Shown here piece after piece: positions 57,342 through 63,572 of a DNA stretch of 64,000 nucleotides. The notes beneath the pieces are model-generated. The model had not been told where the DNA came from, did no database searches, and saw only the letters and a list, made by a program, of their open reading frames with translations. The number at the start of each line of letters is the position of its first letter. The stretch's first letter is position 1. Source of the DNA: Candidatus Sericytochromatia bacterium (lineage in GTDB: Bacteria; Cyanobacteriota; Sericytochromatia; S15B-MN24; VGJW01); contig JAYKHS010000030.1 of NCBI GenBank assembly GCA_035285865.1, positions 32,001 to 96,000 on the forward strand, read 5' to 3'. A program made the translations under genes and the position numbers.

Positions 57342-58313
57342 TTACCAGGGATCGACGAGGTTGGGGTCCGGAGTACCTGAGGGTGCCTCGCGCGCGATTT
57401 CCGACAGGCCGAGGTACCAGAGGATACGCTTGCGGCTGCTGCCCGGACCTCCTGGCAGCAGTCCGAGCACCGGATCGCCCTCCCGCAGGTTGATGGCCAT
57501 CTGCTGGAGGCCCCAGCGACGGAGCTCTCCGGCCAACCCGCTCAGGAGCAAGGCGATGGCGTCCCATTGATCCGGCTTGTATGCCAGCACCCGGACGTGG
57601 CCTGTATTTCCTCGTGCTCCGGGTCGCCCGGCCGGCCAAGGTGCGTGACGGCCCAGCAGGCTCGAAGCGCTCAGCGCGGCTCGGGTCAGCGGACCCGGCC
57701 CCGGAGCCGCTGACCGATGGAAGGCCCCCGGGGCCCACAAGCCTGCAAGGGCGACCAGCGCGCCGTCACGGCGGACAATGCGAAAGGTGTCCAGATCGAG
57801 GCCCGGACAGAGGGCGAGCCCCTGCTGGAACTGGGCGGCATCGGCCGTGGGCGCGAGCGCCAGGCCCGTGCGGTGGCGTTCGAGATGCATGGCAAGTGCC
57901 TGCACGTCGGTCTCGCTGACGCGATGGATCTTGTGGCCCGGGACGTGCAGCGTGCGCCAGAGCGGCACGCGCCGTACCTGGACGACATGACCCAGCGCCT
58001 GCCACGAATGCGCGCCCGCTGAAGCCGGAGCAGGAGTACCGGCCGCAGCCTCGTGAACGAGTGCATCAAGGCCGAGCTCCGCGGCCTTGGTCATGACGGT
58101 CTCGACGGGAAGGCGACCGGTCAGGTCCCGGATGATGCCGATGCGAATCAGGCGATCCTCATCGTGGCGTGCCTGACGAACGGCAAGGCCCAACGACGCG
58201 TCGCCGTCGGACCAGATCCAGCCGGATCCGGCCAAGCGGTAGGGAAAGCCCGGATCCTGCCAAGGGCTGGCCAGCGCCCCCGCCCCCAGAGGAGCCTCCT
58301 GCCAGGTGCTCAC
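57342..58313 (-). CDS. Hypothetical protein, possibly tandem GNAT-like
   Basis: GTGA overlap with pepA stop; fills gap; no clear motif. Confidence 0.5.
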   Translation of the reverse strand: MSTWQEAPLGAGALASPWQDPGFPYRLAGSGWIWSDGDASLGLAVRQARHDEDRLIRIGIIRDLTGRLPVETVMTKAAELGLDALVHEAAAGTPAPASAGAHSWQALGHVVQVRRVPLWRTLHVPGHKIHRVSETDVQALAMHLERHRTGLALAPTADAAQFQQGLALCPGLDLDTFRIVRRDGALVALAGLWAPGAFHRSAAPGPGPLTRAALSASSLLGRHAPWPAGRPGARGNTGHVRVLAYKPDQWDAIALLLSGLAGELRRWGLQQMAINLREGDPVLGLLPGGPGSSRKRILWYLGLSEIAREAPSGTPDPNLVDPW

Positions 58314-59806
58314 GCCGAAACGGGCAGGCCCTGCTCGAGGGCCTCGACGAGCAGGCGAATGCCCACCCCCACGCCACCCTGGGTCAGGTATCCCTTCGGT
58401 TCGTCGGCCCACGCCGTGCCGGCGATGTCCAGATGGACCCACGGAGTCGGATGGACGAAGGCCTTGAGCATCGCGGCAGCCGAGATGCCGTCGCTGTGGC
58501 CCCGCGCGCCGGCGTTCTTGAGGTCGGCAATCTCGCTCTTGACGATCTCCTCGTGTTCCGGCCACAGGGGCATCGGCCAGCAGCGCTCCCCGACGCGTTC
58601 CCCGGCCTGTCGCACGGCTTCTCCGAGCTTCTCGTCGTTCGTGAAGAGTCCGGTGGCCTGTGTGCCGAGCGCCACCCACACCGAACCGGTCAGCGTGGCG
58701 AGATCGATCACGGCCCGGGGCTTGAAGCGCGAGACCACGTAGGACAAGGCATCGGCCAGCACCAGGCGACCCTCGGCATCGGTGTCGATGACCTCGATGG
58801 TCTTGCCATTGTGCGCGCGCAGGATATCTCCGGGTTTCAAGGCGGCGGCACCCGGCATGTTGTCCGTCGCGGCCACGATGGCGACGATGCGACCGGGCAG
58901 GTTCAGGTCGGCGGCGAGGCGGATCGCGCCGAGCACGGCAGCACCGCCTGACATGTCGTCCTTCATCTGGCCCATGTTCTCGCGCCCCTTCAGGCACAAG
59001 CCCCCGGTGTCGAAGGTGATTCCCTTGCCGACGAGGGCAACGGGTGCGGTCTCGGTGGTGGCCGGACCCTCGTGGGTCACGATGATCATCCGAGGGGGAC
59101 CCTCGCTGCCCGCGTTGACGCCAAGGAGACAACCGCATCCCAGCGCCTCGAGGGCGGCCTTGTCGAGAATCTCGGCCTTCAGCGAGGGGCGTGTGCGCGT
59201 CATCTCGACCGCGGCCTCGGCAAAGGTCTCGGCCGTCAGGACATTGCCAGGTTCATTGATGCGGGTCCGCGCCCAGTGGACGGCGTCGGCAAGCGCGCGC
59301 GCCCGAGCGAGGCGCGGGGCTGCTTCGGCTGCCAGGGCGTCAGGCACGGCAACGGCAACATTGTCGAGCACCTTGCGATCGGCGAGGTCTTCGGTCCGGA
59401 AGACGTCGTGGGTGTAGGCACCCATCAGAGCGCCTTCGAGCGTCCATGCGGCCGCATCGAGCCAACCGAGCGGTTCCGGAGCACCGAGCGGGGAGAAGAG
59501 CACCCTGCGCGCACCCGTCTCGCGCGCGGCGCGAACGGCGTCTCCGGCAGCGTGCCGGATCCGTTCCGCATCGAGCTCCTCACGCTTGCCGAGGCCGATG
59601 GCCAGCACGCGAGCCACGGGGCCCGAGGTCGGGTAGAGCAAGGTCGACGATCCTTCCTTGCCGGTGAAATCGCCAAGTGCCCAGACACGCGCCAACTGGG
59701 CCGACCAAGGATCTTCGCCGTCCGGCGAGGGGCCGGCACCTTCGGCATAGCCGACGATCAGCAGGTCGTCGACCGTGCCGGGATTTTCGTGCAAAGATGA
59801 CGTCAT
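58310..59806 (-). CDS. pepA: Leucyl aminopeptidase (M17)
   Basis: VGKGITFDTGG, MKDDMSG, DTDAEGRL, DLATLTG, HLDIAG. Confidence 0.96.
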   Translation of the reverse strand: MTSSLHENPGTVDDLLIVGYAEGAGPSPDGEDPWSAQLARVWALGDFTGKEGSSTLLYPTSGPVARVLAIGLGKREELDAERIRHAAGDAVRAARETGARRVLFSPLGAPEPLGWLDAAAWTLEGALMGAYTHDVFRTEDLADRKVLDNVAVAVPDALAAEAAPRLARARALADAVHWARTRINEPGNVLTAETFAEAAVEMTRTRPSLKAEILDKAALEALGCGCLLGVNAGSEGPPRMIIVTHEGPATTETAPVALVGKGITFDTGGLCLKGRENMGQMKDDMSGGAAVLGAIRLAADLNLPGRIVAIVAATDNMPGAAALKPGDILRAHNGKTIEVIDTDAEGRLVLADALSYVVSRFKPRAVIDLATLTGSVWVALGTQATGLFTNDEKLGEAVRQAGERVGERCWPMPLWPEHEEIVKSEIADLKNAGARGHSDGISAAAMLKAFVHPTPWVHLDIAGTAWADEPKGYLTQGGVGVGIRLLVEALEQGLPVSA

Positions 59807-59902: not shown

Positions 59903-61891
59903 ATGCCGTCGTCCTGCCTGAACGCACGATGTAGTGCCCCCCTGCCTCAGGGGAGCGTTCGCTGTCCGCGATGCGAACTGCCTGCGCCAGGTGCGCTGCT
60001 CGGTGGGGGAGTCCGCATCGAGGCGTCCGGACGAGCTCGGCCGGGTGGGGTCATCATGGAGGGTCGAATCGAGGCCACGGGTGAACCGGTCCGGGTCCGC
60101 CTGATGCTGCCCGGAAAGGGCGCTGCGCGGGATCGGGCCCTTGGGATGATGCGTGCGATGGCTCAGGGCAACTTGTCCGGATTCACGCCGGTCCGCGCGG
60201 CCGATCCGGACGATGCGTGGCCATGGGTTGCCGAATCCTTGCCCCCGGGAGCGTCAATCGGGCGTGGGGGCAGGGTCTTCTCGCCCGAGGAGGTGCGTGG
60301 CTTGTTGCGCCGGGCCGCCGAGCTGCTGGCGCCATTGCATGGCCGCGGTTTCGTGCATCTCGAGGTCCGGCCCGAGAACTTCTGGTCGCGTTCGGATGCG
60401 GCCCCCGGGCTCTCTGGCCCGGGATGGGAGTGGCTGATGATGGCGCCGCCTGCGGTGCGCGCAACACGCGACCAGCCTTTCGTTCCTCCTGAGGGGTACG
60501 GTAACGACTGGAGCCCCGCGCACGACCTCTTCGCCCTGGGGGTCTGCGCCCTGCAGTGGCTGACGGGCCTGCCGCCGGAAAGTCTGCGGCAGGGGCGCTC
60601 ATTCTCGTGGCGTGCAGCCGTTCGGGAGCCGGGAGAGGTCGGTGTCATCATCGACCGATTGATTCATGCCGACCCGGACATGCGCGTCGCATCCATCGCG
60701 GTCTTGCGTGAACTGCTTGATGCTCGCCCCAAGCCGGAAAGTCCGGAGGAGACCACGGGCGATGGGGCGCGCAAGGACCCCGAGCGTCCGGCATGGTTGG
60801 CCTTGCTGGGCCTCTTGCCCGTAGCGCTGCGGTTCTGGCCCCTGGCGTCCGGAACCGGGTGGGCGTGGCCCGGGCTGAAGATCCTCGTCGCGCTCGGCTT
60901 GCTGGGGGGCGGGGCTACAGTGGCCTGGCAGCGCCTGGTGCCTGCTGCGCCGGCACTGCTGCCTGCCCCGGCTCGAGGCGGTAATCCGGGAGTCGGTCTC
61001 TTCGATCCTCCCCCGTGGCATGCCATGGGTCGCCTGTTGGCCGATCGCATGTCCGGAGCGACCGGGTCCAACCCATCCGCGAGACCGGACTTCGCCGCGG
61101 GGGGCACCCCGGCGTCGGGTTCCGAGGCGATGGCGGGTGTCGGTGGGACTCCGGGTGACGGTCACCCAGGCCAGCTTGCGGGTGCATCAGGTTCCTCATT
61201 GTTTCAAGTGCCGCGCGCCGGGGAGCCTGTTGATCCGGCTTCGACAGGGCGACTCCCGGAAGGCGGGCAGGGTGTCGGGGATCCGAAGGTTCAAGGGGCT
61301 CCCCCGACGGCGGGCGGTGCAGGCGAAGGGCGGGCGGCCGGGGCACGCGCGGATGGTCTTCCTGCGGGTGTCGCCGGCGATCGTCCGCGTGCACCCGCTG
61401 CCGCAGGCAAGCCCGAAGGTTTGCCGGATGACGCTCGGGTTTCGGGTGTGGCACCTTATGACGAAGTGGCCGAACCCGGACAGAATCCGGACGATGCTTC
61501 GGGGCTCGTGCCCGGTACACCGTGGTTCGTTCGGGTCAACAAGACTTACCGCACACTGACGGTCTACCGGGACGGGCGATTCCTTGCCCAATACCCCGTG
61601 ACCATCGGCCAGGGGGCCAGCACACCGGAGGGCCGATTCGTCATTCGCAACAAGGTACAGGCACCGCCCTTCGGCAAGATTGCCGGTGGCGACCCGCGCA
61701 ATCCGTTCGGGACACATTGGTTGGGGCTTGACGTGGCCTATCCCGGGGGCAAGGGAATCGGCTTGCATGGCACCAACCGCCCTGAGGAACTTGGCTTCGG
61801 GACCTCGGGCGGGTGCATTCGTCTGCGCAACGAAGACATCGCGGAACTGTATCCGTGGCTGCCCGAGGGCACGCCCGTGGAGATCCAGTGA
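59903..61891 (+). CDS. Zn-ribbon + Hanks-type pseudokinase + TM + linker + YkuD L,D-transpeptidase fusion
   Basis: CLNARC..CPRC; HLEVRPEN, PPE, DLFALG; STPEGRF, NPFGTHWLGL, LHGT...SGGCIRL. Confidence 0.85.
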   Translation: MPSSCLNARCSAPLPQGSVRCPRCELPAPGALLGGGVRIEASGRARPGGVIMEGRIEATGEPVRVRLMLPGKGAARDRALGMMRAMAQGNLSGFTPVRAADPDDAWPWVAESLPPGASIGRGGRVFSPEEVRGLLRRAAELLAPLHGRGFVHLEVRPENFWSRSDAAPGLSGPGWEWLMMAPPAVRATRDQPFVPPEGYGNDWSPAHDLFALGVCALQWLTGLPPESLRQGRSFSWRAAVREPGEVGVIIDRLIHADPDMRVASIAVLRELLDARPKPESPEETTGDGARKDPERPAWLALLGLLPVALRFWPLASGTGWAWPGLKILVALGLLGGGATVAWQRLVPAAPALLPAPARGGNPGVGLFDPPPWHAMGRLLADRMSGATGSNPSARPDFAAGGTPASGSEAMAGVGGTPGDGHPGQLAGASGSSLFQVPRAGEPVDPASTGRLPEGGQGVGDPKVQGAPPTAGGAGEGRAAGARADGLPAGVAGDRPRAPAAAGKPEGLPDDARVSGVAPYDEVAEPGQNPDDASGLVPGTPWFVRVNKTYRTLTVYRDGRFLAQYPVTIGQGASTPEGRFVIRNKVQAPPFGKIAGGDPRNPFGTHWLGLDVAYPGGKGIGLHGTNRPEELGFGTSGGCIRLRNEDIAELYPWLPEGTPVEIQ

Positions 61892-62739
61892 CCCGGCTGG
61901 TCCTGGGACTGTTCCTGGCTGCCACCACGGGAGGCTTCATGGAAGAACCGGACAGGGCCATCCTGAAGCGCAGGGCCTCCGAGGCGGGCAGGCCATCCGG
62001 TCTGGAGCCGGGCGCCTGGCTGGCCAGGGTGGGGATGACGTTTGTCGGTACACCCTACGTGGCCGGCAGGCTGGAGGAAGGCACCGTCGAGCGCCTCGTC
62101 TGCGACCTCGAGGCGCTCGACTGCGTGACGTTCATCGAGGTGACACTGGCCCTGGCGACCTGCCTGTGGCAGGGCGAGACCCCCCTGGATCGGGCCTTCG
62201 CAACGGAACTCGCGCGCTGGCGGTACCGGGCAGGTCGCCCGGAAGGCTGGTCCAGTCGGCTCCATTACTCCTCGACCTGGGCTGCGGTGCACCAGGATCG
62301 GGGCAGGCTCGAGGACGTGACGGGGCAGCTTGGCGGCCGACCGGAGGCGCGTGCGATCCGATTCATGACGGATCATCCGGACAAGTACCCTGCCCTTGCC
62401 GACCCGCTGAACCTTGCGGCCCTGCGCGAAGAGGAGCGTCGCCTCTCCGATCGCGCGGAGCCCTCCTTGCCCGTGCGCGCCCTGCAGCCTTCAGGTTCCG
62501 GATTGAAGGAAGGGGACATCATCCTCGTGCTCTCCGAGCGCCCCGGCCTGGATGTCCAGCATCTCGGCATGGCCGTCCGGCGTGGGCAAGGCTCCCTGGC
62601 CTTCCTGCATGCTCCGAGACCCGGCCGCAAGGTTTCCGTCGCGCCCGGTACGCTTGCCGATTATCTGGCCTCAGGCCGCGACGTCCGGGGTGTCCGCGTG
62701 TTGCGCTGGCAGCCCCCGGCGAGGTCCGGGCAAATATAG
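61888..62739 (+). CDS. DUF1460 / NlpC-P60-superfamily amidase-like protein
   Basis: GTPY, LDCVTFIE, RLHY, EGDII, GLDVQHLG, LHA; GTGA overlap. Confidence 0.85.
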   Translation: MTRLVLGLFLAATTGGFMEEPDRAILKRRASEAGRPSGLEPGAWLARVGMTFVGTPYVAGRLEEGTVERLVCDLEALDCVTFIEVTLALATCLWQGETPLDRAFATELARWRYRAGRPEGWSSRLHYSSTWAAVHQDRGRLEDVTGQLGGRPEARAIRFMTDHPDKYPALADPLNLAALREEERRLSDRAEPSLPVRALQPSGSGLKEGDIILVLSERPGLDVQHLGMAVRRGQGSLAFLHAPRPGRKVSVAPGTLADYLASGRDVRGVRVLRWQPPARSGQI

Positions 62740-62750
62740 GCTGGATTTAA

Positions 62751-62777
62751 CCGAGTTCTCCGGACATGCGGCGATGA
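62751..62777 (+). promoter_or_regulatory. Sigma28-like promoter CCGAGTTC-N11-GGCGATGA
   Basis: Same architecture as element at 20532-20558. Confidence 0.45.
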
Positions 62778-62801
62778 TCAGGTGACAAGGGAGGTGGCTT
62801 C

Positions 62802-63572
62802 ATGCCGCAGGTGTCTCGTCTCGGGGGTGTGCCGGCCTTCCTGCGCGATCTCGCGCAGGCACTTGGTGAGAACGGTCCTGATGCGGCTCCGGGTGCGGCG
62901 GATGCACCCGGGCAGGCTCCCGCCCGCAGACCTCAGGTCCCCGACCGTCCTCCCGCGTTGCCCCCGGTCGTTCGCGATCGCCGTGAAGTCACGGCGGGGC
63001 AGGGGGCCGCGGCCATTCGGGACACTCGTCCCCGAACCGAGCGATTCAAGCTCCAGATCGACTTGGTGGCCAACCGCATCTACGTCATCAACAAGGACAC
63101 CGGCAAGCCCATCGACAAGTTCCTGACGTCGCCGGGAACGGCGGATCACCCGACGGCGGGCGACAGCTTCGCCATCAAGGACATCTACTCCTTGCCGACG
63201 TGGTACCCCCCGAAGTCCAAGTGGGCCGAGGGGCTGAAGCCGGTCGGTCCCGGACCGGACAATCCCCTGGGCCTGCTGGCGCTGGATCTGGGCCAGCATC
63301 ATCAGTTGATCCACGGGGTCGGCAAGTCCAAGTACAAGCTCCTCGGTCAGCCGGCATCCCACGGCTGTCTGCGGATGAGCAACGAGAATGTCCTGCTGCT
63401 CTACAGCAAGTACGCCGCCCGAGGCATGCAGGTGGAGGTCAATCGCGATCCCGAGAAGTCCAACTTGCTCAGGGCGCAGGCTTCGGCTGCCGGGGTACGG
63501 GATCGCAACCTTGCCGACGGGTCCGAGTTCTATGCGGACGCGGTCAAGGGCAAGCTTCCGCCGCTTCAATAG
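62802..63572 (+). CDS. YkuD L,D-transpeptidase, no evident signal peptide
   Basis: PTWYPP, PGPDNPLG, IHG...ASHGCLRM; GGGAGG RBS. Confidence 0.9.
   Translation: MPQVSRLGGVPAFLRDLAQALGENGPDAAPGAADAPGQAPARRPQVPDRPPALPPVVRDRREVTAGQGAAAIRDTRPRTERFKLQIDLVANRIYVINKDTGKPIDKFLTSPGTADHPTAGDSFAIKDIYSLPTWYPPKSKWAEGLKPVGPGPDNPLGLLALDLGQHHQLIHGVGKSKYKLLGQPASHGCLRMSNENVLLLYSKYAARGMQVEVNRDPEKSNLLRAQASAAGVRDRNLADGSEFYADAVKGKLPPLQ

Follow-up and report, generated by a model that had tools for sequence, protein, structure and literature searches.

A gene at 59903..61891 (+) of the window, the 64,000-nucleotide stretch of Candidatus Sericytochromatia DNA that was analysed here, encodes a 662-aa protein (translation, Pfam, AlphaFold) in which a four-Cys ribbon, a Hanks-fold pseudokinase, a membrane region, a Gly/Ala/Pro-rich linker and a YkuD domain follow one another from the N- to the C-terminus. 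This fusion is real and conserved, is undescribed in the literature searched, and has a narrow range of one order. The reading that we favour, at a probability of about 0.5, is that of a periplasmic YkuD enzyme acting on stem peptides, held on a flexible tether and connected to a non-catalytic docking module in the cytoplasm.

Domain structure of the fusion protein

Translation bore out the first-pass annotation in that the gene forms a single stop-free frame, and every sequence motif listed there was found. The public gene call begins at residue 52 (P0002, 611 aa), leaving out 59903-60055 and with it the conserved four-Cys motif; since the four cysteines are kept in 18/18 members with a complete N-terminus, the ATG at 59903 is favoured as the true start. 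A promoter scan returned 0 sites. Misassembly, a caveat attached to that annotation, and chance read-through are ruled out by the intact one-frame fusion in 8 of 47 genomes of the class, by the existence of 20 distinct two-domain proteins, and by a contig from an independent study which bridges 60027-62970, where the sole indel within the fusion gene is a 1-base loss offset by a 1-base gain. A decaying pseudogene remnant is ruled out by the dN/dS values given below. The AlphaFold model of the window protein, built on 15 sequences and with a pTM of 0.47, shows the kinase and YkuD folds with confidence and residues 346-537 with low confidence.

The four-Cys motif (C5, C10, C21 and C24; 59915..59974, +) is a probable zinc ribbon with putative metal binding. 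It resembles the 4-Cys prefix domain of NCBIfam (NF045510) by eye only, with matches in 0/5 fusion proteins scanned; the cyanobacterial-type kinase P0039 does match this model. The pseudokinase, approximately residues 32-275 (59996..60727, +), is recognised from Pfam, AlphaFold, structure search, tree and alignment. On the window protein the Pfam Pkinase match is sub-threshold (residues 124-233, E 0.004, 16.9 bits vs a cut-off of 31.7), while the orthologues P0007, P0158, P0010 and P0022 exceed the cut-off. Residues 11-270 form a block with pLDDT mostly between 80 and 95, and structure searches with the kinase fold returned PknA/PknB-type kinases, such as S. aureus PknB (Z 21.6, rmsd 3.4, 240 aligned), so that the proposed Hanks fold holds.

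In the window protein GxGxxG is absent, VRVR places Arg66 at the position of the beta3 Lys, the catalytic loop HLEVRPEN has HLE in place of HRD, and GPGWE stands in place of DFG; PPE, DLFALG, Asp208 and Arg261 are retained. The beta3 Lys is found in 0/19 aligned family members (Arg in 18, Ile in 1), as is the DFG Asp, with Trp following the DFG position and then Glu/Asp in 19/19. The catalytic-loop Lys is Arg in 17/19, the catalytic-loop Asn is present in 3/19, and the alphaC Glu is kept in 15/19. Among 50 comparison kinases, DFG occurs in 46 and Lys in or beside the beta3 column in 49. The annotated loss of catalytic motifs therefore stands for the window protein, but its HLE is restricted to the window's genus, g1, and is not family-wide: the HRD Asp is kept in 12/19 members, and replaced by Glu, Gly, Ser or Ala in the other 7. 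In g1 the alphaC Glu is gone as well, and the genus sits on a long branch (1.75) in the kinase tree. In a quick tree of the kinase fold, the 15 placed pseudokinases form one clade (SH-aLRT 98), divided into types corresponding to families f1 (the window's) and f3.

The available part of a 2025 review (PMC12599244) defines a pseudokinase by loss of at least one of the beta3 Lys, HRD Asp and DFG Asp, and the window protein lacks all three. We infer from these replacements that the domain has lost phosphate transfer; residual nucleotide chemistry is conceivable outside g1, given the retention of the HRD Asp and alphaC Glu in most members. No Ser/Thr acceptor column is conserved across members in the activation segment, nor was any found in the wider search, in which the juxtamembrane stretch aligns poorly. 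Within g1, for four of the six possible pairs, with dS near saturation in three of these, the kinase fold has a dN/dS of 0.08-0.14 and the membrane region one of 0.06-0.09, while YkuD comes to 0-0.04 and the linker to 0.23-0.62 (one pair saturated); the membrane region is also more similar than the kinase fold, at 83-87% vs 77-79% identity. Judged by the fixed replacements together with these ratios, the N-terminal domain is an old, selected pseudokinase under purifying selection, with its own fixed motif pattern, rather than a decaying one. A separate kinase-fold clade in the class, family f2 (L011:793-2376, L014:1294-2790, L065:1093-2967), carries HLD and DGA for HRD and DFG and is likely to be another pseudokinase family; L011 and L014 also begin with four Cys and end in a tail rich in Pro. 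Genome G000 also encodes a four-Cys kinase-like domain that is highly degenerate and precedes what by eye appears to be a beta-propeller (G000:C30:116322-118211, +).

The linker (60938..61447, +), annotated at about 190 aa, measures 195 aa at residues 346-540, with 20% Gly, 18% Ala and 15% Pro, and has low model confidence and variable length; across the family 100-350 variable, low-confidence residues separate membrane from enzyme. It is followed in f1 by a conserved motif, PYD..AEPG..P.DASGL (61448..61513, +), which has no confident fold in the model, and then by the YkuD domain (61520..61888, +; PF03734 at residues 542-661, E 1e-24, 88 bits vs a gathering cut-off of 23.4). As had been noted, its catalytic residues are intact: His622 (61766-61768) and Cys638 (61814-61816) lie in the pattern HG...S.GC.R, which holds the catalytic His and Cys in 18/18 members having a C-terminus. 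The closest solved structure is B. subtilis YkuD (E 1e-16). The assignment of 3-3 cross-linking as the reaction, made in the first-pass annotation, does not follow from this site, which serves L,D-carboxypeptidases too.

Distribution and genomic neighbourhood

Both domains occur together in 20 distinct proteins, database proteins included, of which two are N-terminally partial. The named homologues come from Candidatus Sericytochromatia or unclassified cyanobacteria, and their database records label the fusion merely as "L,D-transpeptidase family protein". All copies that could be placed belong to f1 and f3, two families of one order: the eight class genomes with the whole fusion in one frame are seven of f1, the window's included, and G010 of f3, while G027 has four contig-cut pieces, indicating two copies, with one piece joining part of the kinase to YkuD, and G011 has a contig-cut C-terminal half. 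Whole or in pieces, the fusion is present in all 8 f1 genomes. In a phylum sample, where just two candidates were scored per genome, 13/401 genomes match at E ≤ 1e-44, all of them f1 or f3, and outside the class there is no match at this threshold in 354 genomes. A search of 50% clusters gave both domains in 11 of the best 150. With the pseudokinase profile at E ≤ 1e-30, 12/12 long proteins matched carry PF03734, among them the window protein itself and members of the query set. None of 79 YkuD frames from 78 loci of other taxa has a kinase match; 3/80 metagenome loci have both domains, all of the fusion family; and none of the Atlas clusters listed has both kinase and YkuD families. It should be kept in mind that these searches were seeded on the fusion family, so that unrelated kinase-YkuD fusions could escape them.

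In g13 (3 genomes) YkuD falls in the same clade as that of f3 (support 97) with no kinase nearby, and these kinase-less orthologues (L049:1114-2112, L050:96-1094, L051:1021-2049) consist of a short N-terminus, one anchor, a linker and the f3-clade YkuD. A split kinase gene can be rejected, as no remnant was present in loci L149, L150 and L050, and in the 99% complete g13 genome G014 no kinase domain is orthologous, the best match having E 2e-9 at 28%. The f1 and f3 YkuD domains sit in separate clades; a small tree groups f1 YkuD with the signal-bearing family f7 (support 92, on a long branch), a grouping which a second tree leaves unresolved. Proteins of f7 (L054:821-2539, L055, L056, L057, L062, L066) have a signal-like start, a zinc-carboxypeptidase-like domain named MpaA-like by eye, a Pro/Thr linker and YkuD, and represent another peptidoglycan-peptide fusion in the class.

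Immediately downstream of the fusion lies an AmiA-like (DUF1460) amidase gene (61888..62739, +; PF07313, E 2e-36; PDB 2p1g, 4h4j/4q5k), whose GTG is overlapped by the fusion stop by 4 bases, in line with the GTGA coupling proposed initially. It directly follows the fusion in 7 of 8 f1 genomes, the eighth ending at a contig end, and was not found in g11 or g13 genomes (0/5). Its N-termini are signal-like by eye in most copies, that of G023 being ambiguous, which suggests that the amidase is secreted. The substrates of AmiA are anhydro-muropeptides. A second YkuD gene, which lacks any hydrophobic segment (62802..63572, +; maximal KD19 0.64), comes after the amidase in the window and in two other genomes of the genus where the stretch is assembled; it has a Pro/Ala-rich N-terminus, with close relatives (E<1e-45) in 7/47 class genomes. 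Genome G000 has just 2 YkuD genes, the second of them without a hydrophobic segment. On the other side, a divergent leucyl aminopeptidase gene (M17; 58310..59806, -) adjoins the fusion in g1 and G027, though not in G022. The gene at 57342-58313 (-) has no Pfam match; its G022 counterpart (30% identity) matches GNAT acetyltransferase families, and in g1 and G022 it stays near the fusion with TldD/PmbA.

FHA genes occur in 5/5 genomes tested and, as these include G014, which has no pseudokinase, no MviN-like circuit is indicated. In G000 a cluster at G000:C16:38564-42145 (-) unites the genome's only FHA match, a kinase-like domain fused, by eye, to a PP2C-type phosphatase, and a four-Cys kinase that is intact and anchored at its C-terminus; this cluster is a candidate signalling partner.

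Membrane topology and possible modes of action

Where the first-pass annotation had left the number of hydrophobic segments open, two were found: H1 (residues 297-315; 60791..60847, +) and H2 (324-343; 60872..60931, +), the latter with a conserved K-I-L-V-A-L-G motif followed by small residues. In g1 H1 is about 9 residues shorter and interrupted by Pro/Arg; in the other f1 genera it is clean and 15-22 residues long. Two segments 17-19 residues apart are present in 9/9 non-g1 f1 proteins, in most of which the hydrophobicity of H1 equals or exceeds that of H2 (KD19 up to 2.7); the insertion energies, computed with an ad hoc weighting, are rough. In the window protein model H1 is broken up into three short helices and H2 forms a single helix of 25 residues; the model of P0007 has two long helices with a 5-residue turn between them. 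In the nine proteins, the positive-inside bias is +4 to +7 for H2 as the only crossing segment, +2 to +6 for both, and -4 to +1 for H1 only, with the H2-only value higher than the two-pass value in 7/9, tied in P0007 and lower in P0160. For the window protein the bias was computed by hand, as the script had merged H1 with the loop in the four g1 proteins, and is +4, +2 and 0, respectively.

Proteins of the f3 type have a single short hydrophobic anchor, and the kinase-less g13 proteins likewise have one anchor; in both groups basic residues are on its N-side, so that YkuD is likely to be outside. This topology need not hold for f1, because homology of the membrane regions is unsupported (hhalign of f1 vs f3 is not significant, probability 0.2) and the YkuD domains belong to separate clades. 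In f1 YkuD is probably outside the membrane, a cytoplasmic orientation being the less likely case; the initial reading placed it outside, but two hydrophobic segments also allow a hairpin with both domains inside.

According to our favoured reading, the fusion would be an inner-membrane protein of one Sericytochromatia order, with a periplasmic YkuD cysteine enzyme at the end of a flexible tether, working on peptidoglycan stem tetrapeptides. Its likeliest reaction would be 3-3 cross-linking, with trimming or D-amino-acid exchange also possible, and in f1 it may work alongside the co-encoded, putatively secreted amidase. The cytoplasmic four-Cys and kinase-fold module, presumably without phosphate transfer, would be retained for docking or scaffolding, determining where, and probably when, YkuD is deployed; control would then work through localisation or clustering, with no conformational push transmitted along the linker. 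This is backed by the obligate fusion among the 12 long profile matches, the fixed replacements, the single f3 anchor and the H2-only charge bias; the strong H1 of f1, the two-helix model of P0007 and the dispensability of the kinase module in g13 speak against it. A docking role is made plausible by precedent, as the pseudokinases of MviN and EssB/YukC are membrane scaffolds.

The two-pass hairpin is a possible though rather unlikely arrangement: H1 and H2 would both cross, leaving pseudokinase and YkuD in the cytoplasm, where YkuD would act as an L,D-carboxypeptidase on stem peptides that are imported or lipid-linked, regulated by the pseudokinase from the same side. The paired segments, the positive two-pass bias and the P0007 model are compatible with it, as are the lack of S66 LdcA in 5/5 genomes and the existence of a cytoplasmic YkuD carboxypeptidase, ElsL, described in the available part of its report (10.1101/2021.09.22.461454). 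It is at odds with the short and broken H1 of g1, the single-anchored sister lineage and the tentative grouping of f1 YkuD with signal-bearing f7, and the ElsL model NF040925 gives only 23.8 bits for the window fusion and 22-27 bits for the fusion proteins scanned, vs a cut-off of 270. Furthermore, AmpG was found in 0/5 genomes and Mpl above cut-off in 0/5, the sets for these and LdcA differing by one genome, and the single weak Mpl match per genome is probably MurC; taken with the missing LdcA, the pathway in which a cytoplasmic ElsL-type enzyme usually works was not found in these genomes, though this by itself does not settle the topology.

Other readings give the membrane region a more active part. 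We regard as doubtful, though worth stating, a version in which a re-selected kinase fold reads a cytoplasmic cue and, via the membrane helices, licenses or clusters both the L,D-transpeptidase outside and the amidase that partners it. A receptor kinase lineage would here have been turned around, with the fixed beta3 Arg and the Trp-Glu pocket as input module; if true, this would amount to a one-protein inside-out control of 3-3 cross-linking, undescribed for YkuD in the literature searched. The stricter allosteric switch put forward in the first-pass annotation, whereby a ligand or partner on the pseudokinase alters helix packing or dimerisation and thereby switches 3-3 cross-linking in the periplasm, appears improbable. 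The architecture, impaired kinase fold and intact YkuD site that it presupposed are all there, fusion is obligate among the long profile matches, and the membrane region, with its small-residue motif, is better conserved than the kinase fold; the switch itself fares worse, as direct allostery is unlikely across a long, variable, low-confidence linker of elevated dN/dS, and kinase-less orthologues occur. L,D-transpeptidases of the YkuD type are, moreover, active as isolated domains. The converse, an outside-in receptor in which YkuD senses or is acylated by wall peptide and the kinase fold binds nucleotide or performs non-canonical catalysis, seems still harder to sustain: domain order matches receptor kinases, the activation segment is full-length, the HRD Asp and alphaC Glu are frequently retained, Arg is fixed at beta3 and in the catalytic loop, and some pseudokinases have other activities (SidJ), but the Gly loop and DFG Asp are missing throughout, the HRD Asp is replaced in over a third of members, the g1 branch has diverged further, and YkuD has a complete catalytic site and is kept in g13 with no kinase attached. 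Least probable of all is pseudokinase-gated cleavage at H2, as an internal signal-peptide-like or intramembrane-protease site, freeing YkuD into the periplasm; by eye the H2 of every f1 protein starts with basic residues, runs through a short hydrophobic core and is followed by small residues, yet small-residue triplets are frequent by chance in Ala/Gly-rich stretches, and f3-type anchors keep no such site consistently.

Control of L,D-transpeptidases is usually ascribed to expression, to the supply of substrate or to outer partners. A conserved module on the cytoplasmic side of an enzyme of this family would give a new handle on the timing and place of 3-3 links, and the full fusion, the further-degenerated g1 form and the kinase-less g13 form provide natural variants for comparison. 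The fusion also lengthens the short list of pseudokinase families by one that has a fixed signature of its own, and suggests that little-studied non-photosynthetic relatives of cyanobacteria keep a dead kinase joined to a wall enzyme, probably positioning or controlling wall remodelling from inside.

Comparison with known systems

No description of a kinase-YkuD fusion was found in the open literature searched, and neither "YkuD" nor "transpeptidase" occurs in the available part of the 2025 pseudokinase review (PMC12599244); within these bounds the initial claim of an undescribed architecture holds. The same part of the review treats MviN and EssB/YukC as pseudokinases of the membrane that act in scaffolding or regulation; in mycobacterial MviN a regulatory pseudokinase sits on a peptidoglycan-synthesis protein, and this pseudokinase is dispensable for the core reaction. 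The first-pass annotation had viewed the fusion as inverting receptor-kinase logic, for which mycobacterial MviN, absent from that annotation, is a precedent. As far as that source goes, in MviN/MurJ (Rv3910) too a dead Hanks fold, ActPs3, is joined to a membrane protein of peptidoglycan synthesis; its structure (3uqc) matches the fusion with Z 17.3, rmsd 3.6 and 222 aligned, no better than active kinases do. However, the partner in MviN is a lipid II flippase rather than a YkuD cysteine enzyme, and Pfam finds only YkuD and Pkinase in the fusion, with no MurJ flippase domain. The pseudokinase of the fusion is N-terminal, bears a four-Cys ribbon and is cyanobacterial-kinase-like; the two differ in phylum and in motif replacements, and no conserved phospho-acceptor Thr was found in the fusion, whereas MviN/ActPs3 is characterised by a C-terminal Thr which, once phosphorylated, recruits an FHA protein. 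It resembles MviN in logic and is not an MviN-family member. EssB/YukC, as outlined in that source, likewise combines a cytoplasmic pseudokinase, a membrane anchor and an extracytoplasmic part in a scaffolding role, but has no outer enzyme and is part of the type VII secretion machine, genes for which were not seen beside the fusion.

With B. subtilis YkuD the fusion shares the fold and the His/Cys site, and differs from it in the long linker to a membrane region and in the 280-residue N-terminal module; unlike YkuD and related L,D-transpeptidases (PF03734), it has no LysM or other wall-binding domain. Acinetobacter ElsL, a cytoplasmic L,D-carboxypeptidase in the available part of its report (10.1101/2021.09.22.461454), belongs to the same catalytic family, but is leaderless, soluble and 105-200 aa long, whereas the fusion is membrane-bound, has 662 aa and scores far under the ElsL family cut-off. 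The nearest folds are those of the PknB/Stk1 PASTA kinases and cyanobacterial four-Cys Ser/Thr kinases, which likewise have a kinase fold, a membrane anchor and a wall-related C-terminal domain. The PASTA-kinase model NF033483 gives 30-44 bits vs a cut-off of 450 in 4/4 orthologues, and Pfam detects no PASTA domain in the fusion proteins; in contrast to PknB/Stk1, the fusion lacks the beta3 Lys and DFG Asp, and its C-terminus is an intact enzyme in place of PASTA.
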